From: Pseudovirgaria hyperparasitica
Lineage: Eukaryota
Assembly (NCBI GenBank): GCA_010093815.1
Contig: ML996566.1
Reading direction: 5' to 3' (one strand)
DNA length: 64,000 nt
Below the pieces are notes generated by a model. The model did no database searches and was not told the origin of the DNA. It was given only the letters and a program-made list of their open reading frames with translations. The position numbers and the translations under genes were made by a program. The stretch's first letter is position 1; the number at the start of each line of letters is the position of its first letter. Below, one piece after another: positions 1-64,000 of this stretch.

Positions 1-572
1 TACATTTCGACCATAATCCGTCCGCAGCAACAATCATGTCGCAATGGTACTCCGCACCGGATTCAGTGGTCACTCGTGGTGCATCAAAGTCGATATTCGA
101 TACTCTCGTGCCTAGCTTCACAGCTACGCCCAGTTCATTTGCGCGTCTGGCCAGTTCCCGTTGCACATCTACACGATGCAGATCCCAGAACGGCGCGCCA
201 TATCTTTCACGCATGTGCACGTTGAACTGATCGTCCTTTGCCAAGAGCTTTCCGTCGGAGTATCGATGGACTGATAGGACGGTGGGCTCTGCGGCGGACT
301 GTTTGAGGCGATCATACACTCCCCATGCCTGGAATAGCCGGGATGCATTGGGAGTTATTTGTAGGCCAGCTCCAACCTATATCGTTTGGATCAGTTTCTG
401 CGGTCGATATTGCGAGGTTCAATAGTTTTACCTCAGCGAGCTCCTTGGCGCTTTCTAATATGGTCACTTTGTGTCCATGAAGAGCGCATGATATTGCAGC
501 AGCCAGACCTGCAAGTCCAGCTCCGACGACGATGATGTCAAGTTGAGAAGATGAATGTGTCCTGGCAGCCAT
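1..572 (-). CDS. FAD-dependent monooxygenase, salicylate-hydroxylase-like (5' part; gene continues past the left edge)
   Basis: ATG at 572. Rossmann motif IIVVGAGLAGLAAA. Intron 431..377 (GTAAAA...ATAG) joins ELAE to VGAGLQITPNASR; exon 2 continues open to YGAPFWDLHRVD...IVAADGLWSKC, typical class A flavin hydroxylase motifs. Confidence 0.9.
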
Positions 573-1058
573 TGTCACATTGAACGTTCGTGGGCACTCC
601 AGACAGACTGATTATAGATACATGATGAGTTGATGAGGGTGTTTATGGTTATGAGAAGAGATGCGATCACCTAAATCACAGACATCAAAGTAGTTACGGG
701 CAAGTCGGCACCTTTCTGTGGATCATGTCACGGCGTTGACGGTGAAGCCTCGGAAAAGCCAGATGAGATATTTTGCCAGTTCGGTTAACCGTTACATCGA
801 GATGGAACGGTCGAGGCCGTGAGCCCTGCCTATTTGCCTGGAAAGGGCCAGCCTGTTGCGCCACTGGACTTGCGAGCTGTGATAGATGTGGTCCTGGTTC
901 AAGAGGTAACATGGAAGAGTTATGACGGAGCGCGGGCTTCGAAAGCGGGAGGTAAATTTCGAGATCAAGCATGCCGGAGAGGCGTTGTCCAGACGGGCAA
1001 GAACTCCCGTAGAGGTTGTTGCAACAAGGTGGAGATGTGGAGATGTGGAATGTGGCTT

Positions 1059-1069
1059 CGGAATTGCCG
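1059..1069. promoter_or_regulatory. Candidate Zn2Cys6 site CGGAATTGCCG (CGG-N5-CCG) in the monooxygenase/TF divergent promoter
   Basis: Seen in sequence; same pattern recurs at 5726, 5816, 9978 and 10020. Near match CGGAAAAGCCA at 751-761. Confidence 0.55.
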
Positions 1070-1339
1070 ACTGTTATTGTAACAGTTGTGTAGACCTTAA
1101 TAGATGATAGGAGCATATGTCGGGGTCGGTGTCGGCTTGCTGACATAATACACAGGCGGCAGTACTTCGGTGAGTATCATGAATAGGCCTGAAAATACAG
1201 GCATCAAATAGTGCCCTCGCCGATTGGTCAGACGTTGCTACAGCTGCGCTAAACTTCGTTAGGATGTGCACACTCCGTGTATGTACGAAATGAGAAGTCA
1301 CGTGCTTTGCTGTATCAGTTACCCCCGGTCGAGCGTTTC

Positions 1340-1370
1340 TCCGCCTCCGCCTCCGCCTCCGCATCCGCAT
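1340..1370. repeat. (CCGCCT)n/(CCGCAT) hexamer microsatellite
   Basis: ccgcctccgcctccgcctccgcatccgcat. Confidence 0.7.
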
Positions 1371-1772
1371 TGGGAAGATGAAGACGCACGTGGTGGATAA
1401 TGCTTCGGGCACGATCTGAGCCTCAATCAGACTGTTTGCAGTCAACTTCACCTACTATCAGACGTTCCTGGTCAGGGACAGTGAGGTGTCTGCATGCTGC
1501 AAAGCGACAGAACACGAGAAATCCGAATCAAAGTTCAAACCTCTGCCGAAGGGGGCATAGCTCGAATTTGGTAGCTTGCAGCAAGGTTCCAACAGACACC
1601 TCACCTTACCGCACCACACCCGCTCTGTCGATCTGCCTGTTGCGAAAACCTAAATCGACCTCGACCATTCCTCGTGTTTCCAAACGCCAACCTCAATTGA
1701 AACGGAGGATTTTCTACCTTCGTCCTCGATGTCTCTTCTTCTCTCAGCACATTCTTCCTCCGTGGCAGCACC

Positions 1773-4204
1773 ATGAATCCTCAACAGATGCCGGCTGCCG
1801 CAGCGAGCAGCTCCGCTGCAACAGCCCCCAAGAGAACGAGACGCCCACGCGCTATCCAGGCTTGTAACTTTTGTCGATCCAAAAAGTACAAATGTGATGG
1901 CGCATGGCCGTGTGCGCCATGCCAGAGTAAATCTCGCATGCTGAACTGACATCCACAATCACCACTGACCACCCATCTCAGAGCATCGCGAAGAATGTGT
2001 CTTCAGAGGTCAAAACCCTGCAGCAGGGGGCCCAGTTTACTCCGCAACGTAAGTTGCAATCCTCGGAAGATGCATTATGATGAAAATAGCATGCGTTGCG
2101 ATGGATGCAGGTTCCAGCAGTGACCATATGTGATTATCGTGCGCTTGTGCTGATTTGAAATCGACTCGGGCATTGGCTGAGTCTTTAAACAGTTATGTAC
2201 ATGACCTGGAAAGACGATTACGCCAGGCTGAGAGTGCTCTCTCGTCTCCTCAGGCCACTCACAATGCTTCCGGTCTGGTGAGCTCTGCAAGTCAGCTACA
2301 CACCGAAGCGACACGCAGCACGATGCTGACCCCATCCTCTGGCACTGGCAACGACAAGTCTACCATCCTCAAATCAACAGAGATTCGTCACGAGACTACG
2401 CCGGATACGAGCGATGACGGCGAGACAGAAGTTGTAGATGTCAACCCCATTACGTCATCCATTGAGTTTCATGGTAATTCTTCGTCAATGGCATTTCTTG
2501 GCCGTGTCCGCCAGGAGTATTCTGCATCGCCAGACGAACCAGTTCGAGCTGGATCAGAAAGGCCCTCGCTAGTCAGCGCTTTTCAGAATACCAATTTCGG
2601 TGCTCAAAATGACAGAATCATGAACTGGAACGATGGATTCGATGAACGACTCTTCTCTCCTCAGCTTTACGTCTTTGTGGAGACGTACTTCAGCAATCTC
2701 CACTACATCCATCCTATCATAGATCAAGCCCACTTTCTTCGACGTTGCGATGACCTCTGGCAAGGCCACCCCGAACGCCAACCACGGAGTTTTATTGCCA
2801 TGTATTTTGCAATGCTATCACTAGGCTCTTTGATACGAAATTGGACCGAGGAGAGAATCAATGATATGGGACGTTTTGATTGGAGCCGCATGCTCTTCGA
2901 GAGAGCGGAGCTCGCGCTCGGGAAACCCGGTTATCTGAACGATCTCGAAGCTATCCATACGCTTTTCTTACTGGCCAAAGTCTGCCAAAATGAATTGAAT
3001 CCAAATTTATCATACATGTACCTGGGCGTCGCCATTAGGACCGCACTCTCGATTGGCTTGAACCGGAATGCCTTGCCAGGGAGACATACAGCAGACTCGC
3101 CCGAGGCACACTATCTATCACGGACGTGGTGGGGCCTATACTCTCTCGAAATGGAACTCAGTTTCGCGCTTGGCCGGCCAGACACCCTCGGCATGGAGGA
3201 CTACCACAACAGACCGAAACCACCTGTCGATGACTCCGAGACCGGAATATTGACCAGTATGCTTGGGCTCGCTCGGATCATGCGTTCGACTTCAATTAGC
3301 ATCTACCTGAGTAAAGCTACCATTGCCGAGAAGCTCACAAGAGCTTTTGAGATTGAGGCTGATATTGATGCGTGGGTCCAGACGTTACCAGTCAGAATCA
3401 GACCGAACATGACGCCTGATCATAAGCGGAATGCTCTGACAGATCCAACATGGGCACAGCGTCAGCGAATGGTGTTGCAGATCCGTTACTATAATGTCAA
3501 AATGCTCTTGCTTCGCCCATGCGTGGTACATGCAGCCAAGCTTGCTGCTCAGAGCCGACCTCTACCGACAGGGATGGAGGAGGCGATTGCCAAGTGTACA
3601 GATGCGGCCGCCAGTACTATTGAGATTATCTACGAAACATGTCGTCTTCACGATTTCTTCCGTACATGGTGAGTTCGGATTCATTTTCTGACTTCTTAAT
3701 AGGGCTAACTACCACAGGTGGTACAACACAACATACGTGACATTCGCAGCATCCATTTTACTCTTCATTGCCGCTCAGCCACAGCTCTCGTCGTCATCAT
3801 CATCTTCATCACACCATAAGCCACCTTATTTACCCCTCATCGACCAGTCACTTGAAATCCTCGATGCTATGCATGAATCAGTGGTAGCTCGTAAAACTGC
3901 TGGCATAATGCGGCAAATGGTAGCAAGGTTCCGCGAGAGAAGCACTCCTTCCTCACAGTCCCCACACAGCCAGTCTGGTTCTCTGCCCGTTCACAGAGTG
4001 CCTAGCGCCCCGAGGTATATTGTCCAAGCTGCACCCGGCCAGCAGCAATTCGTTCCAGAACCGCGGTTTGATGCGGTTTTCCCAGAAGCTGTTGGTAATC
4101 CGAGCTTTGGTCTGGGTATGTGGGATCTGGCGGGTCCGCAAGGAGGTTACGGAACCTGGGATTATACTAACTTCTCAAACGATGTCTACTGGCAGGGGGG
4201 ATGA
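1773..4204 (+). CDS. Zn(II)2Cys6 transcription factor with fungal-specific TF middle domain
   Basis: ATG 1773; ACNFCRSKKYKCDGAWPCAPCQK|HREEC binuclear cluster across intron 1927-1981. Further introns at 2049-2192 and ~3669-3717. Middle-domain motifs YFSNLHYIHPII, AIRTALSIGLNR, RTWWGLYSLEMELSFALGRP. Stop 4202-4204. Confidence 0.92.
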
Positions 4205-4525
4205 AAATCCGGGGTGGAAGAGGTTCGACCACTTGCCGCGACACATTCGGCTTTGCAGCACTAGAAGGAGGAAGCCGAAGGCCCTTCTGGCTTTCATTCC
4301 TCGAAAGTCCCGTACTTCCGAGCTTCAAACATTTGCGAGGAAGACTGTTTTGAGCGCATTATCTCAAGGAGAGCATATCGGCAGCCAAGACTATGGCATA
4401 AGTCTCAAGCACAGAGGCCAGCGACTGCGCATATCTGGGGGTCCTTATTGTCCACGAATCCGATCGAATTGAAGAGCATCGATCGGGTGCCGGCGCATGA
4501 CAAAGGACGTGTTGATCGTCCATTC

Positions 4526-5544
4526 CTAGAAGCCTGGACCCCTTCCGACAATCTTTTCGAGAAAATCGAACCCTTTCCTCTGTTCGTCCCAGACTTTACT
4601 TCCCTTGACCATCTTTCCGGCAAAGGTATGTTTCTCGCCTTCGATCTCGATCATCTCGGCATCGACCCCATAATCCTTCATCCGAGCGTACAGAGCGCGG
4701 CTCAAATGAACCGGGACCATGTCATCGGCAAGCCCATGCACGATGCACACTGGTGGCCATGTGGCAGACACGTTCTCACAGGGGTCAATTGCCGCTAGAT
4801 TCCCGTCTGGTTGAATTGTCTGGATTACCTCACCACGTGATATTTTAGTCAGTGCGAATGCAGTTCGTGGGTCGTCCTTGGGTGAGAGCTGGCCTTGGCC
4901 TTCGAGCGACATTCCACCAACGGTCGGGACCGGGCCGTCAAAAATGCGGTTTATGAATTCTTCTGATACATCGGGTGTGGGCACGTGTGCGAGTGGTGTG
5001 GTCCAGATAGGGTCCTTGAGCGAGGCTGGGCCATAGAAGTCGAGTACAGCAGCAACTGGGCGGGAAACACCGTATGCCTAGTATATGAGCTACGATCTGC
5101 CATGTAGGGGGCCGCAATGTCAATACATACCAATCCCAGAGCCAAGTGACCTCCAGAGCTCGTACCAAAGCCCATGACACGATCTGTATCTACTCCAAAC
5201 TTTTCAAAGCCGTGCGCCCTCAAAGCTTGATAGAGTCCTCCGTCATAAACCCAAGCCAAAGCATCTCTACAGTCTCGTAACGGGCCGTCGAGAATACTGA
5301 CTTGTGGGCAGAGGCGATGATCTAGGGCAAGGACAATCCAGCCACGATCAAGACAGTTTTGGACCTGATCCTTGTTGACCATGCTTGAGGATCCCAGCAT
5401 GAAAGCCCCACCATGGATGTTAAGGATCACGGGATACTTGGTAACTGTTGATGGAGTAGACGACGGGAGGTAGACATCCGTCTCGATCTCCAGGTCGGGT
5501 AGTGTCTTGTAAGGAACGCGGAGGGTAGCATTGAGTGAGGCCAT
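4526..5544 (-). CDS. Alpha/beta hydrolase, HSL-type carboxylesterase
   Basis: HGGA oxyanion motif, LDHRLCPQ, nucleophile elbow GTSSGG, HGLADDMVP (Asp) and GEKHTF (His). Intron 5130..5078 joins the two ORFs in frame (GL|AYGVSRPVAAVLDFYGP). Confidence 0.9.
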
Positions 5545-5725
5545 GGATCACAAACGTGGGTAGAGAGGGTCTAGATGAAAGATAAAAGATACAAACAAGC
5601 AGGTATTAGAACTACGAGGCGCCACCATTTCCAACAAGCGAGCGGTCAGGTGACATAGTAGTTGTACACCGCATTGCACATAACAACTCAGGACAATCAC
5701 AGCCACTCACATTTCAGCTCATGTC

Positions 5726-5826
5726 CGGAACATCCGTCTTGGACTTTCCCCCAAGCCTGTGATTCTTCATTGCGTGGCTTCCGAACGAACGTCCATTCAC
5801 AGAGGTGGATCTAGTCGGATCTTCCG
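5726..5826. promoter_or_regulatory. Two candidate Zn2Cys6 sites in the esterase/dioxygenase divergent promoter
   Basis: CGGAACATCCG at 5726-5736 and CGGATCTTCCG at 5816-5826 (CGGAAGATCCG on the minus strand). Confidence 0.55.
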
Positions 5827-6137
5827 GATAGCATCGAATTGCTCAGCTTGTCCCCACGCTCTGATCAGGAAAAGCCGTGCCAACAGGAATCCGAGCTGGA
5901 TAATCAAGCAACAGAAGCTTTACTGCAACAGGCCCACTTGTTTTCGCGCAGACTTAAGCTTTCGCAAGGCAGCAAAACCCGGCGGCTTTTGTAGAGGGAG
6001 CGGTTGAGGGGCACGGGAGACGACGGACTCCAACAATCATACACCAACGTAGTTAACGAACTGTTAAAGAGCCTGTACGGGCACAAGTACACAGAACGTC
6101 TCTTCATAAGTCATATCAGCAGCAATACTCTATCACA

Positions 6138-7316
6138 ATGTCTACTTCAACATCTTCCAAAGCCATTCCCACCCATGATTCACCTCCCATCCCACCCGCG
6201 TCCACCAGCACATACATCATCCCGCAGCTCTCCGGCGAGCTCGTCTCAATCCCGGGCTCCAAATCCGTTTTCCGCATTCTCGCCTCCGAGAAACAAACCG
6301 GCGACGACTCCATCGGCGTCTTCAGCTCCGGTGGCGCCCTTGCCGACGCCCCTGGCTTCCACCACCATGAGCGTGCACACGACATCTTCATGGTGACAAA
6401 AGGCGAGCTGAAGCTCTGGGTTGGCGACTCATGTCGAATCCTCCAAGCCGGTGATTTTGCGAGTATACCACCGGTATGTCCCTGAAGCCCTCTTTGCTTT
6501 TGCCCAATTACGCTTTTTCTTCGATACGACCATGCCTCAGCTGACAGCAGCAACAAGAAAATAATCCACAACCCGCACCTCCTCGGTCCCATCACCGAAA
6601 CGTACGGCCTGATCCACCCGTCCTCCTGGATCGATTTCTTCCGCTACGTGTCCGAGCCCACCGACATCCCCAGCATCATCTATCCAGAGCAAGACTCGCG
6701 CTCCTTGCCCGCCCTGCTCGTCCCCAAAGTCATCGCCGCCGCAAAAGCCGGCAAGGACTACGATGTGCATTTCCACCGCGAGCATGTCGGCTGCGAGGTC
6801 GCTCCCTGGTCCGATGCAGACACCGTCCTGCCCGACGGCGAGGCGCCCTACTACCTGCGCGCAAACCGCGGCCCGCGCTGGATCCTGGGCGGCGTGGTCA
6901 GTAGGCCGTTCATCACGGGCACGCAGTCGAGCGGCAAGTTTGCGATTACGAGTCTAGAGGGCTCGAGCCACTTGGACGCGGGGCTGAATCCGCTGGCGGC
7001 GCCATTGAGGTATGCGGTGCATCATGTGCTGGTGGTCATGGAGGGCAAGGCGACGATAAACGTGGAGGGATATGCGCCTGCGACACTGACGGAGGGCGAG
7101 ACGGTGTTTGTGCAAGCGGGCGTGGCGTGGGGCGTGGTGTTTGAGAGTCGGTTTGTGAGGATTTGGAGTTTTTCGAGTGGGGATGGGGTGGAGAGGGTGA
7201 TTGAGCGGGCAGGGAGGCAGTATACAGAAGGATATGTGGTGCCTGACAAAGCTGAGTCTTGGGATGCTCAGAAGTTTGAGGAGGTGTGTAAGGAACTACA
7301 GGTTAAGGCTGCTTGA
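6138..7316 (+). CDS. Quercetin 2,3-dioxygenase-like bicupin (no signal peptide)
   Basis: Cupin motif 1 PGFHHHERAHDIFMVTKGELKLW; motif 2 GDFASIPP|KIIHNP across intron 6474-6557. Second cupin PYYLRANRGPRW...RPFITGTQSSGKFAITSLEG...LTEGETVFVQAG matches the fungal quercetinase layout. Confidence 0.8.
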
Positions 7317-7827
7317 TTGTTGGATAGACACATTACGATATACTACCTACAGCAATGCTTTGGCACTTCGGCAATACTTTGGTACGGTACATAACACAAA
7401 ACTTCACGCTATTTGCATTTCTGTGCCCATGTGTCTGACGAAAGAGGAAACCTATTCGGCGTCCGTCGTTAGATATCGTGGTGTTTTGTAAACCTTTTCA
7501 CGCATTTCCGCGTCAACATTCACACGTCACAGACGGGCTTATTTGGACCATTTAATGAATACTGTATGCGAATCCTCTTGCTTCCCGCACCAATCACACA
7601 ATTGCAAAAACAGGAAGCAATCCAGGACGTCGGAGTGTCCACATCATTGTAAATCTTTTTCTCCCGGTCAAACTATGTGTATAAAATCTCAGCTTGTCAC
7701 GCACAGGACCCCACGATATCTTATGTTATTGACATATTACGTTAAATGCTATATCAAGACTATAAGGCTTTAGGCAGACGAGACAAAGCATTCAGCCTAT
7801 CACACTGGCTCTTCGAACCATCGCAAC

Positions 7828-9651
7828 TCAGTGCTCCACCTCCCGAGGTAGCCACTTTTCCGTAACAATTCTGAGTCTTTTACCCCAAACCCAGATCGGG
7901 ATGACCATCAACGAAAACAGTCCCATTAGACCGCCAAAAACACCAAAAGGTACCGCCGGACCAGCAGACGTAACCCACTCGCCGACGAAGAATGTCCATG
8001 AGAAAGCGACGATGGCACGCATAGTTGTTACAGCGACGAAGCAGTCCCCAGAAACGGCGTTGTAGGACTCGATCAACTATCATTCAAGTCAGCGAAATCC
8101 ATCCGGAGTGTGTCAAACAGCAAAGTAGACTCACATAATTGAACCCAACGCTTGGTGCCTGCATCAAGCCAAAAGCCAACATTCCAAGTCCGACTTCCAT
8201 TCCGACCCATGCCTTGGGCAGAGAACTCCACGCGCTAAAGCCAAATGTCCACAATCCACAAGTCGCCAGGAACAAACCTGGCAACGTTACCGGGAGTCGG
8301 TCCTCTGCCTCGGATAATCCATGGCTCCCGTGCTTCGCTTTGGATGTAAGAGCATGATCTACGCTGAGATACGTAGCTGCGGCACCAAGAACCGAACCAA
8401 CGAGACCACCGACGTTGATGAGACCAGCGTTTGCGCCCCAGAGGTACGGGGGCGAGGCAACGATCGTGGGGCCGACCGTCGATATGGCGACGATACCACC
8501 AACGAGACCTGCATACCAGAACATGACCAGCCACACGCCAGGCAGGCGGAGAGTTTTATACGGAGCAAAAAAGCGGCGCAATAAGCCTGGGCGGTATGTA
8601 CCGATTTTGAGCGATCGAAGAAAAGAGTAGGAGCCCGTGATCTCATTATGATGGGTTGTAGTCTGCTCAAGGCGGATATCTGGAACCTTCTCGTGTGTGT
8701 CTAAGGATGGTTCTTGTCTGCTGTTGAGACCTAAAACCTTCTGCCGGTCAAACATAGTCTCTGGCGCGAGGAAGAAGCACAGGACAAGTGTGATCGCGGC
8801 TAAAATTACGTTAATCCAATGGATCCATGGAATCCCCATGTTACCCGCAATATAGCCTCCTGATATCCCACCGACTAAAGAGCCGGTCAAAAGGAAAATT
8901 GTGTATACGCCCTAGGGGATGCGTCAGTGAAGGAAATGACATACAAGATTCTCTTTGCTTACCATTGCTCGTCCTGTCTGGTGAGTGAAGAAGATCTCCC
9001 CAACTACGTCAGGGGATACTGGGAGGGAGACATTAGCTCGATCCTATCACACGGTAGGTTTCTTGAACTAACCAGCTTCTGAAGGAGCTTGTCCAATACC
9101 CATGAAGACGCGAGCGGCAAGGAGACTACTGAAGCTTGTTGCTAAGCCCGCCCACATAGATGAGAAAACGAGGAGCACCAGGCTGATCAGGATAACAGGC
9201 CGGCGGCCAAACGTGTTCGCCAATGGGACCCACCAAATGTTCGCAACACCTTGCATGAGAACATTGACAGCGATCAGTTGAGAAAGTCTTGAAAAAGCCA
9301 CAGGCGGATTGAAGGCTAGCGGTGTCGCAAGGAGCGGGAGCGCGCTGGCAATTGACGAAGACGCGAAGTTCCCGATGAAAGCGTCTATGGACATGCAAAG
9401 AAGGATGGCTATCTTACGCCACATGGGCCAATTCAGAGGATCTGCTGCATCGGAAGACGGTTGAGGCACCAAACGCAAATGATGGATATGGCCGGGCTCA
9501 TCGTCAAAGCGCTGGGCTATGTACAATGTCAGTGAAACGAAATAGACTCTATTGGTGGCATGGTAGTACCGATCAATCTGGAAGTCCCAGGGGGTGTTGC
9601 TTCCGCCAACTCCTGCTTCGACAACGAAAAGGCGTATTTGAAGCTCGCCAT
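7828..9651 (-). CDS. MFS transporter (DHA1/Hol1-like)
   Basis: ATG 9651 (MASFKYAF). Motifs LVPQPSSDAADPLNWPMWRK, PLANTFGRRPV, SLLAARVFMGIG, EAEDRLP, NY|IESY. About 12 hydrophobic segments over 5 exons. Confidence 0.9.
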
Positions 9652-9977
9652 GATGTGCGGATGTTCAAGATCGAGAGCACATCAGACCATCAATGGCAGA
9701 TTGAGATGTATAAATAAAACTACTGCTGAAGCGTAAACCATAGCCCAGACCATCTCGCATAATTGCTGGCCTGAGTGTCAAGTGTCCCCTGTCACAGGTT
9801 AATCGTGCGGGAGCTAATCCTTTCCGTGTATTCTACCCCATGGGGGTGGCTGGCTTTGCATCGAATGAAGACGTGGACAGTTTCGTGCAGAACGACTCCA
9901 CATGTTCCGGCAACAAGCGACGGTAGATCAGATCACAAAGATCATTCATGCTGCATAACGGGTATGCTCAGGCTATG

Positions 9978-10030
9978 CGGAAGAGCCGAAGTGGTCGATT
10001 CGGTAAGGATGAAGCATTTCGGAAATGCCG
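9978..10030. promoter_or_regulatory. Two candidate Zn2Cys6 sites upstream of the MFS gene
   Basis: CGGAAGAGCCG at 9978-9988 and CGGAAATGCCG at 10020-10030. Confidence 0.55.
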
Positions 10031-10790
10031 GCCCCACAAGGGAGAACGTACACCCATGCCCTTGCTGAAGCCTGATTCGTACTCCTCCCGTCCGCTACGG
10101 CGTCAAGCCGGAAGCGGTCGAGATCGGCAAACAAGGTTCGAGATGATATGCCTTTCTCGAGACACATCCGCTTGCAATTGTCGCGAGTGTTTGATTGCAT
10201 GCCTCTGATGCGCTATTTTATAGTAGCTAGGGTGACACCCTGGACGAGCCGAGGCTACCGACCGCTAAGATCAAGCGGTTTGATATGATAACAATCATGA
10301 CACGGCGGCGACGCTCATTTGGTATCTGATTATAGCTATCAGGGCCCACAAAACCGGTTTGTGTATTGCCATCGTTCTACTGCATAATCACGCGTGGCAG
10401 TGCTGCTGTATCGGATCAATCAAATGCTGAGTGTGGGTGTGGATGTCTATACTTACAAGCAGGCGGATGTACTGAAACTGTTGTTCAAATCTTCGGCGCA
10501 CATGATAGATGTTGGCTGATGAGATGGTAGACGGAGTTAATCCAGGTATCAATCCAAAGACACGGGGGTGACTTCCGAGGAATAGGCGACGCGACGCGTT
10601 CACATTGACGTTGAACCTTCCGCTTTGTAGGGACAACATTTCCCCAGTATTGTTGTATCACATCCCATTAAACAATGTCGTCCGCCTCGAAACACCCTCC
10701 ATGAAAAGACCACGCAAGCGGAAGACTTCAGAACCCTCATTTCACGGTCATACAATCTACTGACCCACATCACTGCGATCAAGGCTGACG

Positions 10791-11240
10791 ATGACGACCA
10801 CTGGCACGCAAAATGCGTCTAATGCACTCAAAATCCTATGGGACCGACTCTCGCTCTGGAGCTATAATTTCAAGACACAATCCCACGACACTTTTTCCCG
10901 CATGCGCTGGGAAGACTACATACGCCTCGTCGCCGTTCTTGGTGCATACATTCTCATTATCCGCCCAGTTCTCGTGAAACTTGGGGCGAGACATCAGATG
11001 CGAGAGCTCGAACGGCAAGAGGCAAGGGACAAGAATCTCGGTAGCAGCAATGTGAACGACCAAGGCTCGCAGCACTCCGCGAACAGTGGGACGACCGGTA
11101 CAGATTCGGCGGTGGATCCGGCGGTGCGTCACAGACAATTAATACGCAAGGCTTTGCTAGAACACGAGGAGAACTTGCGAGCAACAAGGGAGGAAGAAGA
11201 CGACGACGATCAAGACATCGATGAATTTCTTATAGAATAG
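10791..11240 (+). CDS. PGA2: Pga2-family trafficking membrane protein
   Basis: 149 aa single exon; DYIRLVAVLGAYILIIRPVLVKLG transmembrane motif and acidic tail DDDDQDIDEFL, recognised from memory of the family. Confidence 0.7.
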   Translation: MTTTGTQNASNALKILWDRLSLWSYNFKTQSHDTFSRMRWEDYIRLVAVLGAYILIIRPVLVKLGARHQMRELERQEARDKNLGSSNVNDQGSQHSANSGTTGTDSAVDPAVRHRQLIRKALLEHEENLRATREEEDDDDQDIDEFLIE

Positions 11241-48802: not shown

Positions 48803-51554
48803 TTTATCGGTCGAATATTTCCAGAAATTGTGTGTGCGTGTATAAAATTCGGTGAATCCAAAGGCCTCGTGAGGACATGTAGAATCGGTACTGGCTCCGA
48901 AAGTCGTACAAAAGCAAACGCCCCAGAGATCCCACGGCCACAAAAAACCAGCGATAGACAGGCGAAACCAGATGAATCGTATTAACGCTGCAACAGACGA
49001 GCAGACACAGGTCATTACATATATAGTACTTCCGCCCAGCCCAGGGCCCTCTGCTGCATCATCCATCCATTCTCAATGTCGGTAGCGACCGAACACACAC
49101 GCGCCCCCCTGAGGTTATGGCCTAATCAAAACGCAGCACTCCTCACCGCACCCCCCCGCCAGCATACACGCCAGGGGCCTAAACTTAGCCTAAAGCAGCC
49201 TACGCTCCACCCCCCCGAGGCCCCAAAACTCGCGCTGCTGCGTCTATGTGCGGCTCACACGCACGACCAGCCGCAACGGACCAGTCTCAGTCCACTCCGT
49301 TCAGCGCGGATACCGCAGCGGCGCACCTGAACTGAATAATGAATTATATAGATACGCAGCGAGGTAAGTGGTTCATGTTCACGGGTTCCACATAACACGA
49401 TGTTCCGTGGAGAGTCGCAATACGGCAATACAAGAGCACAAAGAGCACGCTTGACGTGTCTTGCCACACACACACATACACGTCCTGCCGGGCCAGGCAA
49501 GCCGGATGCGAAGCGAAGCCAAAGTGCCACAGCATAATAATGTATGGATGTCCCCATCGAAAGTGCGTATGGCGTCTTCTTTGCATCGCATCCTCTCGTT
49601 TCGCCAGAAAGCCAGACGCCAGACGCAGCAGCATACGACGTCCAAAAGACCGGTTCGGGTTCTGACATATGTGGTGGGACATAGACTTTTTTTCTATGTC
49701 TGTTCTCCATTAATTACCACTGTTGAAAGTTTGTGCGACGAATTTCGCGTGTGTATGTATGTATGTGCGTGTGCGTGTCTTGGACTCTTGGTGGTGGTAG
49801 CGGTGGAGCCAAAAGGGGTCTTCGCTTTCGATAGTGACTTCGCTGCAGAGCCAGCCCCAGCAGCACACCGTACGGTACGGTATAATAACAGCGAGGAGGA
49901 GACGAGACTTTTCAGTGGGAGAATCCATACAATAGTTATCCCACTTCCGTAACGGGTATAGAGGCAGCAAGCTGACATGCATCTCAAGGGTTCGCAACTC
50001 CGTTCGTACAACGTCCAAACGAGGGATCATCTCAGCTTGTACAGTGATGCGTTCGTATCGATGACCTTTCTCCCATACAGCCCAAGGAATCGTCGTCTCT
50101 AAATTGAATAAAATTATTGATTGCATAGCACCAAACGAATATGTTTAGTGCCCTCCTAATTAATAATTGTGACGAGAACTCCCTCCCTGTTTTCACCGCT
50201 GGCTGGTCCGAGACTTTTCCTTCAGGAGAACAGACAGCCGACCAAGCGGAACACATCATCCCTGCCGAGATCCCGCATCACGCCATGATTTAGCTAGGAA
50301 ACACACACAGACACTGACAAGACACACACACCCCGCAGTCTCCATAATAGTACGTACCTACATTATACATATCCAGACTTACCAACAAGTAAGTACATAA
50401 TTCCTGGGCCCGAAACGCTCAAATCGCCAGTTTTCTTTGGGGGGGTCTTTTTTTTCCCCTTTTCATTATCCCGACAATCGGAACGACCGGCCGGCTGGAA
50501 CAGCTAATAATAACAAGAAAGAAAGAAAAAGACTTTCCATAATTACCTTGATTCTTCCAGCCCAGCATCCATCAGTAATTACCTAGGCTATTAGGCTCAC
50601 TGATCTGAATCCCGCGTAAACATAAGCATGCTGTATGTACACATGTAGCATTGTAGATCCCGCGGGGGTTTCGTCAGTTCGCCGCCGCCGCCGGAGAAAA
50701 TTCCTGCGCTGCGTGCAGTGTAATGCAGTGCGTGCAATGCATGGCATATGCAGCATGGAGATTACATTTTATATCCTCACATACAGTGTATATATGCACG
50801 ATACAGTGCAGTGCACACACACACACACTGCAGACTAACACCCCTCGGCCATGGATATGCACTAATTAATTAGAGTCCTCCATCCAGCGTCCCGGATGAT
50901 TATTCCAAAGCAAAGACCCCTCCTCCATGTGCGAACCTCAGCTAGCTGCACGCACGCCCCCTCAAATGAATATATATATATGTATATCCGTGTTTGTTAG
51001 GTTTCAGTCCAGAACATTCCATACTATATGCCGTGAAACATCGAGGAAAAAAAAACAAAACCATGTCAATATGACGCGCGGATGTGGTTTGTTTGGGAGT
51101 GGTTGAGGGCGGGGTGTGGTAGCACAGTACGCCTTGTAAGAAAACAAAAACAAAACACAATAAAGAAAAAAAACATTTCAAGATACACGCAGGCATGATG
51201 GATCTGTAGATTGCGTTCTAATATAAAATCCTTCCGAAGTCGGCAATTGCCCTGCCGAAGCTAGCTGTACTCGTACATATTACTTTGACTCCCGGGTGCA
51301 TGATACATGATTCCTTCCTTTCCAGTTCTTTTATTGTATTTCCAAAAAAACAAAGAGTCCGTAACTCCTGTGCTTACGCTTGCTGCATTGTGGCAGGCAG
51401 GCAAAGCAGTTTCATCGACATCAGCTGGCTTCGTGCTAGATTAGAACTATAGCATATGTGTAAAGAGGTAAAAAAAAAAGTCTGACGCAACGATTGGGTA
51501 TCGAGAGGCGGCAGACAGAGAACGATAAACAAAAAAGGTTACAATGTGATACAA

Positions 51555-58558: not shown

Positions 58559-60220
58559 TCAGCGTCCGCGAAGCCCCTCGACGGAGAAAACTCGGTCTTG
58601 CCCGACCACCACTGCCACCACTTCCACCACCACTACTACCCGTCGTCGACAAAGGTGTGAAGCGGACAGGCGGGGACGGTGTTTGAAGGGCGATGATGCG
58701 CGCGCGGATGTGTTCCGGGGTGCTGGTTTGGAGGGACGAGAGGAGGGTGGTGAGTTTTGTGCGGTGGGGTTGTTTGGTTGGGGGGAGGAGGGGTTTGTTT
58801 CTGGCTGTGGTGATTGTGGTGGTGTGGAGAGATGTTTCTCGGCTGAGATGCGCCGTGAGAGATGTCTTGGTGATGATGATGGTGTGAGAGGCGGAGTCTT
58901 GATTGTTGCTATTGCGGATGAATGGTGCGATGGGTATAGATGTGCGCGCAGGAGGACAGAGCGGGAAAGATGTTTGCGGTATGCGGAGAGGGGATCCAGC
59001 GGTGCGAGGTCGAGGAGTAGGGCCAGACATGCCATCGAGGCTATGAGGAGGGTCGTGGACGCGTGTAGGTGGGCGGTCGAGTGTTTGGAGGGCGAAAACC
59101 CCGTGGAGTCGGCGATGTGTTGCTCCTCTGTGGCGATGTGTTTCAGCGTGAATGACAGGTGGTCGTCGAGTGTTGACTTGATTGAGGATGCGAGCGAGGG
59201 GTCGTTGAGGAGGACACGGAGGGCGGGGGCGTTGGCGGAGAGGAGAGCTAGGCTGACGGGTGTTTGGCCGTGGAAGTTTCGTGCTGAGGGCAGAGCGCCG
59301 TGGGTAAGGAGGAGTGCTGCGGCGGCGGCGGCGGCAGGGGCTTCGCAGGGAGAGCAAGCGTGGTGTAAAGGGGTGTCACCACGGGCATCTCTGGCGTTGA
59401 CGTCGGCGCCCCAGGAGAGTAAGCTGGCCATCAGGGCAGTGTGTTGAAGATAGGAAGCCTCATGTAAGGGGGTTTCTCCAAGCACGTTTCGGGCCGCGAT
59501 GCTGGCGCCTCTGTGTCGGAGGAAGTCGACGACTTCGAGTTGGCCTTTGGAACAGGCGTATGAGAGTGGGGTTCGTGAGAAGCCGTCGATGGATTCCGAT
59601 TCGATGCCCATGTTCAGGAGCTCGGAGACGGCTTCGAGTTGCGATGTCTCGATTGCTTTCCTCAGTGAGAATGGAAACCACTTTGATGGGATGTCTAGAT
59701 CGACGGCATCTAGCATGGTCTCGGTCAAGCCTGCTATATCGCCAGCCTCGACGTGGTCGGTGAGCGTGCGGTCCAGTTTCAGGAGCAGTCTCTGCGACCT
59801 GGAGTCACTCCAGAAAACATCTGTATTCATTTGCTGTTGCGGGAGTACATCGTCGACTGGTCTCGGGTCTGGGGAAATCTTTTGGACTGCGAGGCTAGAT
59901 GAAAGTTGCTCTTCCGGTCCCGAGACTTTCACGGCCTTGTCTTTCTTCATGAGCGTTCGCATGGTGCGTCGACATGCCTTGGAGTCAAGGACATCTTCGT
60001 CGAAGGAGAAGATCGGGCTAAAGCTGGAGACGTTCGTTTCGTTGCTGCTAATAGTGTGATCGGTGAGACGAGATTCCGTCTCTTTAAGTAGATGCACCAA
60101 TGAGGTATCATCATGGATTTGAAGCCAGACAGGTTCTTTGGTACTTTCCAACATTGCGAATGGTCCTGTTGAGAGGTCCTGCGTTTGGAGTCCAAGAAGT
60201 TGAGAGGGCATAAAAGGCAA
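58559..60220 (-). CDS. Ankyrin-repeat protein (5' and 3' ends uncertain)
   Basis: RTPLSYACSKG, GETPLHEA, GADVNARDARGDTPLHHAC, GQTPVSLA. Confidence 0.8.
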   Translation of the reverse strand: MPFMPSQLLGLQTQDLSTGPFAMLESTKEPVWLQIHDDTSLVHLLKETESRLTDHTISSNETNVSSFSPIFSFDEDVLDSKACRRTMRTLMKKDKAVKVSGPEEQLSSSLAVQKISPDPRPVDDVLPQQQMNTDVFWSDSRSQRLLLKLDRTLTDHVEAGDIAGLTETMLDAVDLDIPSKWFPFSLRKAIETSQLEAVSELLNMGIESESIDGFSRTPLSYACSKGQLEVVDFLRHRGASIAARNVLGETPLHEASYLQHTALMASLLSWGADVNARDARGDTPLHHACSPCEAPAAAAAAALLLTHGALPSARNFHGQTPVSLALLSANAPALRVLLNDPSLASSIKSTLDDHLSFTLKHIATEEQHIADSTGFSPSKHSTAHLHASTTLLIASMACLALLLDLAPLDPLSAYRKHLSRSVLLRAHLYPSHHSSAIATIKTPPLTPSSSPRHLSRRISAEKHLSTPPQSPQPETNPSSPQPNNPTAQNSPPSSRPSKPAPRNTSARASSPFKHRPRLSASHLCRRRVVVVVEVVAVVVGQDRVFSVEGLRGR

Positions 60221-61304
60221 CGCATGCTACACTATATCAATAGGCTGCAATTGTTGATAGAGCTAGAGGACTCGGGTTGGTAACCTACAGGGAAAGCCTC
60301 CGCCACTTCACGGTAGTTGGTACACCGAATGCCTTCTAGAAGTTCATGCCGTACGTAGAGAATTGCCTATACATGGGGATCAAAGCTGCCCGCTAGCATT
60401 GTTGGAAGTCAGGAGGAGTGTCTCGTCTCAGCCGTGGTCCGCAGGGACGCCTCGTTCCGGAAACGAAAATGCGGGCATCCAACATCGATTGTTCAGCGCT
60501 ATCATCATCCATTCTATAGTTATGCAAGCATTCGTGGTCTTAACGAGCCCGACCACCGCTACTCGGGGTCCGACGATCTTAAAATAGGGCGTCTCATTCC
60601 TAGCCAGGAATGGAGAGTGAACAACCATGCTACCTGGATTCTTGTTTGACGTGGTCGGTAATTAGTAGATACTTCTCCATCGCTTTCGGAGGTGTCAAAC
60701 CGGGTCGTCCCGGACAAAGCGCGCATATCATGAAACCACTACTGTGCCGCCTATCTGCTGCTTGAAAAGACATTCCTGATAGTTTGTTGACCGCAGCGAT
60801 CACCCTGTATGATCCGTACGAGCAATGTTGTTTTTTTGATGCAGACGGCTCAATAGGTTCCGAATAACAACGAACAGCTCAATATCAAAAGCAACATGAC
60901 TTGCTGCAGATGCGGAGGGACGACGAGCTGGAAGAAGAGTTTGTCATATTCGGGGCGAATGCCACCATTCATCCTCGTCCTGCCAGTCTAGGCTAGAGTG
61001 TCGGAACGCCAACTACTACATGGACCCAGGTGGTTTCTCGGTTATATTCACTTTCTGGCCTCTTGTGCTTATATTTGCTCTAGCTCGAGAAATCTCCCAA
61101 GGCAATGGCACTAGGCCGCTAAATTCGTTCAAAGCCATAACATTACATAGCGTGGGAATCCTGGTCCAAAAAGACTTTCATTGTTGATGCAATCGTCAGA
61201 ACGAGCCACCATGTATGGTATCTTCACCTTATGCCAATAACGCCAATGAACTGCTCGAGAATTCGGCTCGACAACGAAATAGCCTGTCCAACGATGGCCT
61301 GGAT

Positions 61305-64000
61305 TCATGGGTCCACACCTTCAACTTTCCGCAAAAATTCCTTCACTCTGCTAACATCAATACCATCAGAAGTCTCGCTCTCCACAGCCGCGACCAAGCC
61401 GGATAATGATTCCTCAATACGTGTCTCGTCTGTATTCGTACATATGGAAATAATTTTCCGGTACTGCGCCTCGAGTTCGCCGTTCCTTTCTTTGAGAGAT
61501 TTGCATCGCTCTTGAAGATTGGAATTGTTACTGATATAGGCCGATAGACGAGCCTTCAGCACATGAACCGGAGGTAGCGAATAAAGGAATGCCTGGTGTG
61601 GCCCAGACAATGTGTCAATATCCAGGTTTCCATTAATCGATGAAGTGAATTCAGGGGCGGTCGATGACGGAAGGATCGTCGTGAGAGATAAAACACTGTC
61701 TGGTAAATGGTCTGCCCTTACGGCGACTCCGGTATCCAAATCTGCGTCCCCAATAGAGCAGGCCTTGAGTCTCGTCAATGCTGCGGGCTCTTTGTTGGCA
61801 AGTGCGCGCCTTTGCGACTCGGCCCATCGACGGAGGTTCTGTATACGTTGCAGACGATCAGACCTTACCTGATTACGCTGGCGGAGGACATCAAGTTTTT
61901 GCGATTCAAGTTTCTGGTGTGTAGAAAGCTCCTTAATCATACTGTTTGTTTTATCGATCTGATCCTGCTTTATTCTTGTTTCTGCGCTATATTGCGTTTC
62001 CGCTTGAGAGAGGAACGAATTAAACACTGCTCGATCATTAGCGTCTCAAAGTCTTGTTATCTGCAACTGGTTAAGCACTCACGGGGCATGATCTCTCGGC
62101 TTGTTTCTTCACTTCGGCTCAACGGCGCTTTGCCCTTGGGTGGTGATCCAGCTTGGCTTTGTGAGTATCCAGACTTGTCCACGTCGACACCGACTCCAAA
62201 TTCAATAGGCCGCATCCCTTTGTAATTAGGAATAGTGACATCAGCCTGTACTTCGAGAAGTTGACGAATTATACTGCGATTACCAATCCTTGCAGCCAGA
62301 TTCAAAGCAGTATTTCCGCTCTTGTCTCGGGCATTTACCATTTCACCCATGAAACGCATGAGGCCTATTGGCTTATTACTAGAGCCAACGTCGAAGGAAG
62401 CTTGTTGCCCATTTGCTGAATTGCTGCGTACTAGAAATTCCAATAGGGCTTCCAAGTAGTATTTACTCGAAGAGGCCCTTCCTTTAATTGCACACGTAAC
62501 TGCTATGTGATGCAGAATGGTGCGGCCCTGGTGGTCCCTGAACTCGATTAGAGGAGATAAGATCTCCAGCGTTTCAGGAAAGCAACTATGATCCAAGCTG
62601 TTATTGACCGACACAGCGCTCATTAATGGAGTCTGTCCCGCAGCATTGCCACGGAACATATTGGCACCTTTCGAAACAAGCAGACGCATCAGTGAGACTC
62701 GAGCCAGAGTAGCAGCCCAGTGCATTGCGGTGTTCGCGGCATTATCGATTGGCAAATCGAGTTCAGCACCGGACAGGTGACGAAGCGCTGGATGGTCGGC
62801 AAAGTCGGTCCTAGATGTGTCTGCAAAGAGATCTGTTAAGTATGCCTGCTTCTCGTCTGTCATCTTATTTTTGGGAGGAGGTAGTGGTGGCAAAGCAGTG
62901 GGTGCTTCGCCCTCCACAGGCGGTACTTGTGGCAAAGACATCTGCCCTGTGAACGATTCATTCGGTTCTGTTGGCGAACCATCCCGCATTGCAACATCAC
63001 GTCCACCGTTAGACTGGGCGAATGAATCGCCATGGTCCGATCGCATTCGTTTTCGTGGTGGCTCCTGTGTTTCCATTCCGTCTGCTCCGTAAAGTGCGCT
63101 GGATGTGCCATAAGTAGAATCACCTTGGCCTGTGGCACCGAAGCTTTTTTCGGAGTGTATACTCTGCATACTCTGTTGACTACTGCGAAACGATTCCTGA
63201 CTGGCCATCGGAGGCTGCGACGGTCGTCCCCCTATTGTGCCTGGCCGACGCTGTGAGCTGCCTGGCCGAGGCGTAGGTGAGTTCATTCGTGCGACCTTGT
63301 TCATTGCAGCTAGAGCATTCGATGCCGTGGACGATATGTTTGAGAAGAATGTCCCATCAGAATTTTGGGCTGGCGCGCGTGCTTCCATCGAGGTAGTGTA
63401 GAAACGTTTACGATTCGCCGCCATGGCCTGTTCTTTGGTAGGCGTGTCCATACCTTGGCCGGGAGCGCCGCTCCCGTCTGCACTCACATCATACTCCAGT
63501 AATGGGCGTAATAGCTCTTCGACACCATACTGACGGCAGAATTCTCTCCCCCGCTTGTAATCAATCCACGTCCCTTGGTATTTTCCATAACCGCCCTGGA
63601 CCTTTTCATGGTTTCCGGTCAATATCTCTTTCTCCAAAACTTTGGTTCGCTTTCCCTTGTCTACACCAGCGACTTTGAGGATTTGCGTTGCATTCAGCCA
63701 AGAGTCCGATCGCCTCCTCATAACAGCAATACCGTTGACTTCGAGCTCGTATACTGATACGCCCGAGTAAACAGCCTATTTGCGTCGAAAGTTAGCAAAG
63801 GCTCTAGAATGCGACATCTGCATCGTGTTATGGCGTACTGTGTATATTTGAGCGGGACCACCGTGCTGCGCAGGATTGAAGCCATTCGCTTCCGAGAAGG
63901 AGCGAAATGATCCTGATGGCGCCATCATACCATTGCTCGTGTTCGGATTATTGAACATCAGGTGCTGGGGTGTCTGCTGGCCATTGGAAGTAAAGGACGA
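61305..64000 (-). CDS. SWI6: APSES/ankyrin cell-cycle transcription factor, Swi6/Cdc10 type (frame open to the window edge)
   Basis: IYT|AVYSGVSVYELEVNGIAVMRRRSDSWLNATQILKVAG...VQGGYGKYQGTW APSES domain; ankyrin repeats NTAMHWAA, GQTPL, GNTALNLAAR; C-terminal coiled coil. Orthology within the Swi4/Swi6/Res family is uncertain. Confidence 0.85.

Follow-up and report, generated by a model that had tools for sequence, protein, structure and literature searches.

A candidate intracellular flavonol-cleavage cluster in Pseudovirgaria hyperparasitica, built on a conserved esterase-cupin-regulator unit

Flavonols are among the most abundant phenolics of plant defence and plant litter, and the biochemistry of their breakdown by fungi has been known since the 1960s. 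The Aspergillus quercetinase is a secreted copper glycoprotein, and the enzymes of the rutin pathway of Aspergillus flavus act outside the cell. We analysed a stretch of 64,000 nucleotides from Pseudovirgaria hyperparasitica (GCA_010093815.1, contig ML996566.1), hereafter the window, the first 10,030 nucleotides of which carry five genes, encoding a flavin adenine dinucleotide (FAD) monooxygenase, a Zn2Cys6 regulator, a carboxylesterase, a quercetinase-like bicupin and a transporter of the major facilitator superfamily (MFS), and compared this locus with the described systems. The enzymes of the A. flavus pathway are a rutinase, a quercetinase and a depside esterase, according to the introduction of the paper on the quercetinase of Verticillium dahliae (PMC4462102). 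In the available parts of that paper, the V. dahliae enzyme, VdQase (VDAG_02532), is described as a cupin that lacks a signal peptide and is 23% identical to that of A. japonicus; the 1047-residue gene model includes a fungal transcription factor (TF) domain, and knock-out strains failed to use quercetin and had reduced pathogenicity. The QDO of Sclerotinia sclerotiorum is listed as secreted in the accessible part of a review.

A second described system concerns the aromatic acids that flavonol breakdown would yield. As presented in the accessible text of PMC10832562, the 1,2,3,5-tetrahydroxybenzene pathway consumes gallate and 2,4,6-trihydroxybenzoate, and its parts are a decarboxylating flavoprotein monooxygenase, a DUF3500 protein (the proposed ring-cleavage enzyme), an FAH-like protein and a short protein, often clustered with MFS and TF genes. 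The same text reports that the protocatechuate hydroxylase NRRL3_4659 of A. niger converts protocatechuate to hydroxyquinol, and in this text the words cupin and quercetin have no occurrences. Nor is quercetin mentioned in a review from 2025 on the aromatic pathways of A. niger, and our literature search returned no paper describing this cluster, a depside esterase gene, an intracellular route or its regulation. The chemistry itself is known, but the searched literature contains no earlier description of the intracellular form, of the cluster, of the Asp-type metal site or of the candidate esterase gene and operator.

On balance, we favour the reading that the five genes form a TF-controlled intracellular module that opens flavonol-type (3-hydroxyflavone) rings and disposes of the pieces. 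This reading is the best supported. The data directly establish which genes are present, that they are spliced and transcribed, the fold of the cupin, the conservation of linkage and the enrichment of a promoter motif; every catalytic step and the substrate itself we infer. The bicupin would bind a metal through three His residues and a carboxylate, and would cleave the heterocyclic ring with O2 to give a depside and CO. The esterase, a cytosolic enzyme of family IV, would hydrolyse the depside to 2,4,6-trihydroxybenzoate and the hydroxybenzoate of the B-ring, which would be protocatechuate from quercetin, 4-hydroxybenzoate from kaempferol and gallate from myricetin. To judge from its family, the FAD monooxygenase may turn these acids into polyphenols of the hydroquinone type (hydroxyquinol and 1,2,3,5-tetrahydroxybenzene), and ring-cleavage enzymes encoded elsewhere would take these products; a DUF3500 protein is a candidate for this next step, because its gene lies beside the cupin gene in two other lineages. 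The MFS carrier may move substrate or products, in either direction.

The bicupin gene (6138-7316, plus strand; exons 6138-6473 and 6558-7316) encodes a protein identical to database protein P0001 (364 amino acids, aa), and its relatives of solved structure, by both sequence and fold, were quercetinases. A search of all PDB sequences (E<=0.01) yielded 10 matches, six of them quercetinases and the other four chains of one small Cupin_2 protein. The quercetinases were 2h0v (Bacillus subtilis YxaG; E 4.8e-18), 1gqg (A. japonicus; 1.3e-15), 8hfb (an evolved YxaG variant), 1y3t and the Streptomyces QueD entries 5fli and 5flh (7.5e-4 and 8.1e-4). No gentisate, homogentisate or other ring-cleaving cupin was found among these matches, and a gentisate-type dioxygenase was rejected as a candidate on this basis. 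An AlphaFold model built on 22 homologues (mean pLDDT 89.2) was compared with known structures by Foldseek, and ranks 1-10 and 20-50 were examined. The first ten were all quercetinases (TM 0.74-0.88, E 2e-30 to 1e-26), with TM values of 0.82/0.88 for 2h0v and 0.75/0.80 for 1juh. The next fold class, from rank 20, comprised oxalate decarboxylases (E 1.6e-15) and seed storage proteins, with TM values of about 0.45-0.47, and the ranks examined contained no ring-cleaving cupins of the gentisate/homogentisate type.

The predicted metal ligands of P0001 (H75, H77, D82 and H116) all lie in the N-terminal cupin, in which the motif reads H75-x-H77-x3-H81-D82; the C-terminal cupin has no His motif. In the alignments, H75, H77 and H116 fall on H66, H68 and H112 of 1gqg (A. 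japonicus) and on the ligands of YxaG; among the 22 homologues, H75 and H116 do not vary and H77 has a conservation of at least 90%. P0001 therefore has both the bicupin fold and the three His ligands of quercetinases. The family is of limited size: among 1.84 billion cluster representatives, 377 match at E<=1e-3 and 32 reach E<=1e-30. NCBIfam gave no informative equivalog for either the cupin or the esterase. No N-terminal hydrophobic segment was detected in P0001 (maximal 12-residue Kyte-Doolittle mean of 1.22) or in the esterase (0.72), which fits an intracellular location for both proteins; a secreted quercetinase was rejected, as P0001 has no signal-like N-terminus. Two cupin paralogues, P0338 and P0367 (30-38% identity), have their metal ligands replaced (W/R, N, Y), and on these residues are probably non-catalytic or of different chemistry.

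The esterase gene (4526-5544, minus strand; exons 5130-5544 and 4526-5076) encodes a carboxylesterase of the alpha/beta-hydrolase fold-3 (hormone-sensitive-lipase, HSL) type that is identical to P0214 (321 aa), with Pfam matches to BD-FAE (2e-17) and Abhydrolase_3 (1e-11). The protein has HGG at 44, GTSSG at 127, DDMV at 256 and KHTF at 287, and thus the HGG, GxSxG and C-terminal Asp and His of family IV esterases, the Asp and His being assigned by motif position only. Its best PDB match was heroin esterase (2.3e-10), followed by other HSL-type esterases, so that its nearest relatives of solved structure hydrolyse aryl esters, and in the Protein Atlas the esterase and the MFS protein matched generic family names only.

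The pairing of this gene with the cupin was assessed by scanning metagenome contigs with the cupin alignment, which yielded 56 loci (L numbers below) in 36 groups at >=90% cupin nucleotide identity. Neighbours were identified by tblastn with the exon translations of the window, and the 19 groups with at least 2 kb upstream of the cupin were considered assessable. Eleven of these 19 groups have an esterase orthologue (42-61% identity) at a distance of 0.5-1.0 kb upstream of the cupin, in divergent orientation in 10 of the 11 and on the same strand in the remaining one (L009); a twelfth group, L056, with a flank of 1.1 kb, has the 5' part of the esterase. Among named genomes, nine of 33 cupin records (including that of the window) lie on a contig equal in length to that of one of the best 120 of 274 esterase matches, equal length being a proxy for co-location and not proof of it. 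In Sporothrix bragantina the cupin and the esterase have adjacent locus tags, and in Stagonosporopsis vannaccii and Bipolaris oryzae the contigs are only 23.5 and 25.4 kb long. The nine also include Myxozyma melibiosi, a yeast of the Lipomycetaceae. Esterase-linked cupins were present in all three main subclades of a quick maximum-likelihood tree of 49 cupins. We infer a role as depside esterase for P0214 from this conserved pairing. Several stand-alone esterase homologues (P0216, P0233, P0243 and P0302; 319-331 aa) carry automatic names such as 'Non-reducing polyketide synthase ausA' or 'Polyketide synthase', which presumably reflect similarity to the release domain of such synthases and hint at activity on hydroxybenzoyl esters.

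The regulator gene (1773-4204, plus strand; exons 1773-1926, 1982-2048, 2193-3667 and 3717-4204) encodes a protein of 727 aa with Pfam matches to Zn_clus (5.2e-6) and Fungal_trans (8.2e-17), and the spliced product has the complete six-Cys motif together with the middle homology domain that define Zn2Cys6 factors. Orthologue-like matches to all its exons, including the C-terminal exon without a domain, were found beside the cupin or the pair in nine groups, with an identity of 58% in one of them (L023). In addition, the 1162-aa model P0335 joins a cupin (51% identity) to a regulator orthologue, the C-terminal part of the model being matched by the regulator of the window (38% identity, E 6e-112). 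The core recurs in many unrelated contigs, so the grouping is more than chance, and the esterase, cupin and regulator are a real and widely conserved unit. In another model, P0343 (1141 aa), a cupin relative (34% identity) is combined with an AMP-binding/acetyl-CoA-synthetase-like enzyme; both P0335 and P0343 may be real fusions or merged annotations. Directly beyond the regulator, a D-isomer-specific 2-hydroxyacid dehydrogenase was observed in two groups (L003:154-1617(-), L039:821-1897(-) and L046:2-457(-)), with 77% identity between L003 and L039.

We scanned 15 cupin-upstream regions (11.3 kb) for CGG/CCG triplets at spacings of 0 to 12. CGG-N5-CCG occurred 20 times, in 11 of the 15 regions, a density of 1.77 per kb versus 0.40 per kb over all loci. 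Spacing 5 alone stood out, every other spacing having at most 0.88 per kb, and none of 1000 shuffles reached 20 sites (mean 3.4, maximum 10). The sites have a common TTCCG half, and the word was refined to CGGNNNTTCCG only after they had been inspected; the refined word has six sites in the window versus 1.48 expected. Five of the six lie in the three cluster promoters: one (1059-1069) in the divergent region between the monooxygenase and regulator genes (573-1772), two (5726-5736 and 5816-5826) in the divergent promoter shared by the esterase and the cupin (5545-6137), and two (9978-9988 and 10020-10030) in the region upstream of the MFS gene, which forms the right border of the cluster (9652-10763). 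The sole site of the window outside the cluster promoters is at 50479-50489. Outside the window, the density of CGGNNNTTCCG was 0.93 per kb in promoters and 0.085 per kb elsewhere, and the word was also found before the regulator gene and in the monooxygenase/MFS promoter of L036. One site of the esterase/cupin promoter, CGGATCTTCCG, recurs letter for letter in the orthologous promoters of L033 and L036. An unbiased k-mer search of the regions between esterase and cupin at 12 loci pointed only to GGAATTCC-like words, with counts close or equal to the highest obtained from shuffled sequence. All three promoters are probably controlled by the Zn2Cys6 factor, which would act through these putative CGG-N5-CCG (CGGNNNTTCCG) sites.

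The monooxygenase gene (1-572, minus strand; exon 1 at 430-572, intron at 375-429 and exon 2 at 1-374, running past the window edge) is present only in its 5' part. The window encodes residues 1-172 of the 457-aa protein P0094, with identity over that part, and the product is a group-A FAD monooxygenase with a Pfam FAD_binding_3 domain and a Rossmann N-terminus. P0094 matched PDB 8gsm ('4-hydroxybenzoate decarboxylase') over residues 2-423 (E 7.6e-121) and 8x38 ('decarboxylative vanillate 1-hydroxylase') with an E value of 3.5e-85; salicylate hydroxylases and 6-hydroxynicotinate monooxygenase came far behind. By this full-length similarity, P0094 belongs to the decarboxylating hydroxybenzoate 1-hydroxylases, the activity of which is predicted for it. 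The substrates of the matched enzymes have a hydroxyl para to the carboxylate, and so do protocatechuate, 4-hydroxybenzoate, gallate and 2,4,6-trihydroxybenzoate; the monooxygenase therefore fits the acids expected from depside hydrolysis.

A P0094 orthologue near the cupin was found in only two of the 56 loci, L036 (57% identity over 268 aa) and the end of L033. In both, the divergent slot elsewhere held by the esterase is taken by a DUF3500 gene (L033:1970-3202(-) and L036:7615-8844(-); Pfam E about 1e-123), and the gene order is DUF3500, cupin, regulator and P0094-like monooxygenase. This order ties a quercetinase-like cupin to a route that consumes the acid of the flavonoid A-ring. In the group formed by L038, L039 and L040, a weak match to LigB-type extradiol dioxygenases (E 2.6e-7) was observed about 3 kb downstream of the cupin (L040:4813-5844(+)).

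The transporter gene (7828-9651, minus strand; introns 8077-8134, 8911-8961, 9019-9072 and 9517-9569) encodes an MFS_1 protein of 535 aa with two Pfam matches (3.9e-11 and 9.7e-11) and an open spliced frame. The best NCBIfam resemblances of its N-domain were to efflux carriers (EmrD, 6.7e-10, and Bcr/CflA), all far below the cut-offs, and an orthologue of its N-terminal part (60-61% identity) was found beside the esterase in one group, L001/L019/L020. Given the shared motif and the linkage in a few lineages, it is plausible that the monooxygenase and the transporter are members of the cluster in this genome.

An earlier interpretation made from the letters alone, hereafter the sequence-only reading, had proposed an intracellular version of the quercetinase route, and most of its functional assignments are supported. 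The cupin that it called quercetinase-like has quercetinases as its solved relatives and lacks an N-terminal hydrophobic signal, which fits an intracellular route; the esterase that it took for the partner of the cupin is a conserved divergent neighbour; the regulator that it assigned to the cluster has an orthologue travelling with the pair, and CGG-N5-CCG sites in the cluster promoters; and its hydroxylation step is matched by the placement of P0094. The efflux-type resemblance of the N-domain leaves the 'uptake' role given to the MFS protein unsupported. The conserved linkage for which it suggested a search was recovered for the esterase and for the TF, but extended to the monooxygenase in only two loci and to an orthologous MFS gene in only one group.

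Gene content in positions 1-10,030 was established from stop-to-stop open reading frames (ORFs) and a Pfam scan. The monooxygenase and regulator genes form one divergent pair, the esterase and cupin genes another, and the MFS gene is convergent with the cupin gene. Transcript contigs came from two public runs, which represent one sample and one study. Spliced contigs covered all five genes, with GT..AG or CT..AC joints at all ten inferred introns (one in the monooxygenase gene, three in the TF gene, one each in the esterase and cupin genes and four in the MFS gene); on this evidence all five are real genes with the modelled splicing, and are transcribed under at least one condition. One contig of 5388 nt (X2 record 6) spans the regulator, esterase and cupin (2193-7409), so neighbouring transcripts overlap or abut, and a single transcript is not implied. 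On the right, the cluster is bordered by PGA2 (10764-11240), followed by genes for ribosomal L30, WD40, RRM, SPO22, Sec6, kinase, glycogen phosphorylase and ankyrin proteins, and no family of aromatic catabolism was found among the 57 ORFs scanned from the cluster out to 64 kb. Two large ankyrin-repeat ORFs lie at 58562-60226(-) and 62060-63775(-), the second also having a KilA-N domain. The sequence-only reading had thus given the five genes in the right order and orientation, apart from a small correction that places the ATG of the cupin at 6138, and had rightly put the start of the housekeeping genes just after about 10.7 kb. Its suggestion that the cluster may extend to the left is borne out at least by the monooxygenase, which runs past the left edge by at least 285 residues.

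Several observations weigh against the flavonol reading. In quercetinases, Glu is the fourth ligand and general base (3His/1Glu); P0001 has Asp82 in the column of A. japonicus Glu73, and this Asp is invariant in 22/22 close homologues. In the part of PMC4416304 available to us, the engineered E76D variant of Streptomyces QueD is reported to have marginal activity (1.32 U/mg), below that of E76H (about 2% of wild type). The identity of P0001 to solved quercetinases is only about 20%. As the canonical Glu is replaced by Asp, we call P0001 a quercetinase-like bicupin, for which sequence and model predict flavonol cleavage, and stop short of counting it among the proven quercetinases. An esterase next to the cupin was absent from eight of the 19 assessable groups: three with intron-less cupins beside RRP12, one in a P450/terpene-synthase context, L033 and L036 with DUF3500, and L034 and L051 with uninformative neighbours. 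Beyond the P450 and terpene-synthase context, one cupin stands by an anthrone-oxygenase-like gene. L033 and L036, to which the monooxygenase linkage is confined, are mutually related (their DUF3500 proteins are 78-85% identical). In the 64-kb window, tblastn detected no DUF3500 gene, the 57 right-hand ORFs had no FAH or DUF3500 Pfam match, and no other ring-cleavage gene was found; the DUF3500 and FAH-like genes that accompany the monooxygenase in 1,2,3,5-tetrahydroxybenzene clusters are thus missing from the window, which opens inside the monooxygenase gene. The N-domain of the MFS protein is closer, weakly, to efflux carriers than to aromatic-acid importers, and the linkage of an orthologous MFS gene is limited to one other lineage. 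Finally, CGGNNNTTCCG owes its form to sites already seen, and the unrefined CGG-N5-CCG was not enriched over the whole window (17 versus 11.8 expected).

Two of these contexts merit description in their own right. In the clade of intron-less cupins (L006, L045 and L015; cupin at about 5148-6170 or 10001-11029), the cupin is in every case downstream of RRP12, a housekeeping gene, and at these three loci we found no esterase, no regulator and no upstream CGG-N5-CCG site. In L021 (2923-15396 and 17279-17917), a distant cupin (39% identity) lies amid three P450 genes, a SnoaL-like gene and a terpene-synthase-like ORF, possibly a secondary-metabolite context.

The alternative that survives best, although we consider it unlikely, is that the chemistry is the same and the substrate another: the Asp-type bicupin would cleave some other aromatic of the enol or hydroxy-pyranone type, such as a chromone, an aurone, a 3-hydroxy-4-pyranone or a metabolite of fungi or lichens. 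The esterase would then hydrolyse the ester so formed, and flavonols would not be the physiological substrate. The invariant Asp in place of the catalytic Glu, the low identity to solved quercetinases and the varied contexts of the cupin (P450/terpene synthase, anthrone oxygenase) speak for such an account, as does the existence of paralogues with degenerate ligands (P0338 and P0367). Furthermore, P. hyperparasitica lives as a hyperparasite on rust fungi, a lifestyle that also speaks for a substrate of another kind. However, the solved relatives are all flavonol dioxygenases, and natural exchange of Asp and Glu is seen across the homologues: among 34 wider representatives, Asp forms extended from 50% down to about 30% identity, and Glu forms were mostly more distant (25-32%). 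The linked monooxygenase and DUF3500 moreover fit the two known fragments of flavonols, which argues for the flavonol reading.

It is distinctly improbable, in our view, that the cluster instead encodes a hydroxybenzoate pathway with the cupin at its end. The monooxygenase would make a benzenediol or -triol from a hydroxybenzoate, the bicupin would cleave the ring of this product, and the esterase would hydrolyse a lactone intermediate in the manner of a dienelactone hydrolase (DLH). Several bicupins are indeed ring-cleaving dioxygenases of the gentisate type, the monooxygenase family feeds such pathways, and the esterase exons have weak DLH matches in Pfam (E 0.009 in the window and 1.8e-7 in L012). 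Nevertheless, the match of the esterase to Abhydrolase_3/BD-FAE is far stronger than that to DLH, and ring-cleaving cupins were absent from both the PDB matches and the Foldseek ranks described above. Most esterase-cupin loci have no monooxygenase in the available sequence (L033 and L036 being the only ones of the 56 with it), and in these two loci, where DUF3500 lies beside the cupin, a second ring-cleaving enzyme would be redundant.

We give very little credence to the possibility that these are tailoring genes of a secondary-metabolite cluster with its core synthase to the left of the window. A monooxygenase, an esterase, a cupin, an MFS transporter and a Zn2Cys6 TF are a common tailoring set, and the window starts inside the cluster, with the left flank outside the data, which also counts against the flavonol reading. 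The polyketide-synthase-type automatic names of some esterase homologues and the distant cupin among P450 and terpene-synthase genes point in the same direction. Against this, no ketosynthase, condensation or adenylation domain was detected at E<=1e-5 in 349 ORFs from 25 cupin-relative loci, the similarity of P0094 to the solved decarboxylating 4-hydroxybenzoate/vanillate 1-hydroxylases is near orthologue level, and the cupin is linked to the catabolic DUF3500 in two lineages. That the five genes are chance neighbours with no common function is scarcely credible and is already contradicted for the esterase-cupin-TF core: genes for MFS, Zn2Cys6 and FAD monooxygenase proteins are very abundant in ascomycete genomes, but the esterase orthologue accompanies the cupin in 11/19 assessable lineages and the TF orthologue in nine groups, and one motif is common to the three promoters.

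The conserved esterase-cupin-regulator unit provides directly testable candidate genes, and the link with decarboxylating hydroxylases and DUF3500 suggests a fate for the A-ring (2,4,6-trihydroxybenzoate). The natural 3His-1Asp site is of interest to cupin metalloenzymology, given that a bacterial quercetinase is left nearly inactive by the engineered E76D change. In plant-associated fungi, the module may be one of the factors that determine how well flavonoids of the host are tolerated. More tentatively, and with somewhat less confidence than we would need to favour it, we propose that many Ascomycota may have an unrecognised intracellular flavonol regulon, in which a 3His-1Asp quercetinase subfamily, the long-sought depside esterase as its divergent partner, a Zn2Cys6 regulator acting through CGGNNNTTCCG and a decarboxylating hydroxylase would feed both fragments into the hydroxyquinol and 1,2,3,5-tetrahydroxybenzene pathways. 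On that proposal, the tetrahydroxybenzene/DUF3500 route, itself of recent description, would gain its major natural source, the flavonoid A-ring.

Among the described systems, the rutin pathway of A. flavus has the same sequence of quercetinase and esterase with the same expected products, as outlined in the part of PMC4462102 available to us; here, in contrast, both proteins lack signal peptides and are encoded by a divergent pair with a regulator beside it. VdQase resembles P0001, by description only, as a signal-less cupin, and its combined cupin and TF model recalls that of P0335, whereas no esterase or monooxygenase neighbour is reported in the accessible parts of the same paper. The 1,2,3,5-tetrahydroxybenzene clusters, as described in the text available from PMC10832562, differ from the window in having DUF3500 and FAH-like genes; they have in common with it a decarboxylating flavoprotein monooxygenase together with MFS and TF genes, and in L033 and L036 the cupin adjoins DUF3500 and such a monooxygenase. 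The A. japonicus quercetinase (1juh, 1h1i and 1gqg) has only about 20% identity to P0001, with Glu73 in place of Asp82, and P0001 differs from it further in lacking an N-terminal hydrophobic signal and in being encoded in a cluster with an esterase, a regulator and a monooxygenase; the two proteins nevertheless share the bicupin fold (TM 0.74-0.82, E about 1e-26) and a metal motif in the N-terminal cupin only. B. subtilis YxaG/QdoI (1y3t and 2h0v) is encoded in a bacterial operon rather than a fungal cluster, has Glu where P0001 has Asp, and its C-terminal cupin also aligns with an H-x-H...E motif that P0001 does not have there. It is, however, the best match of P0001 in both sequence and fold, it is cytoplasmic, and the spacing of its His-x-His-x3-His-carboxylate motif is equal to that of P0001.

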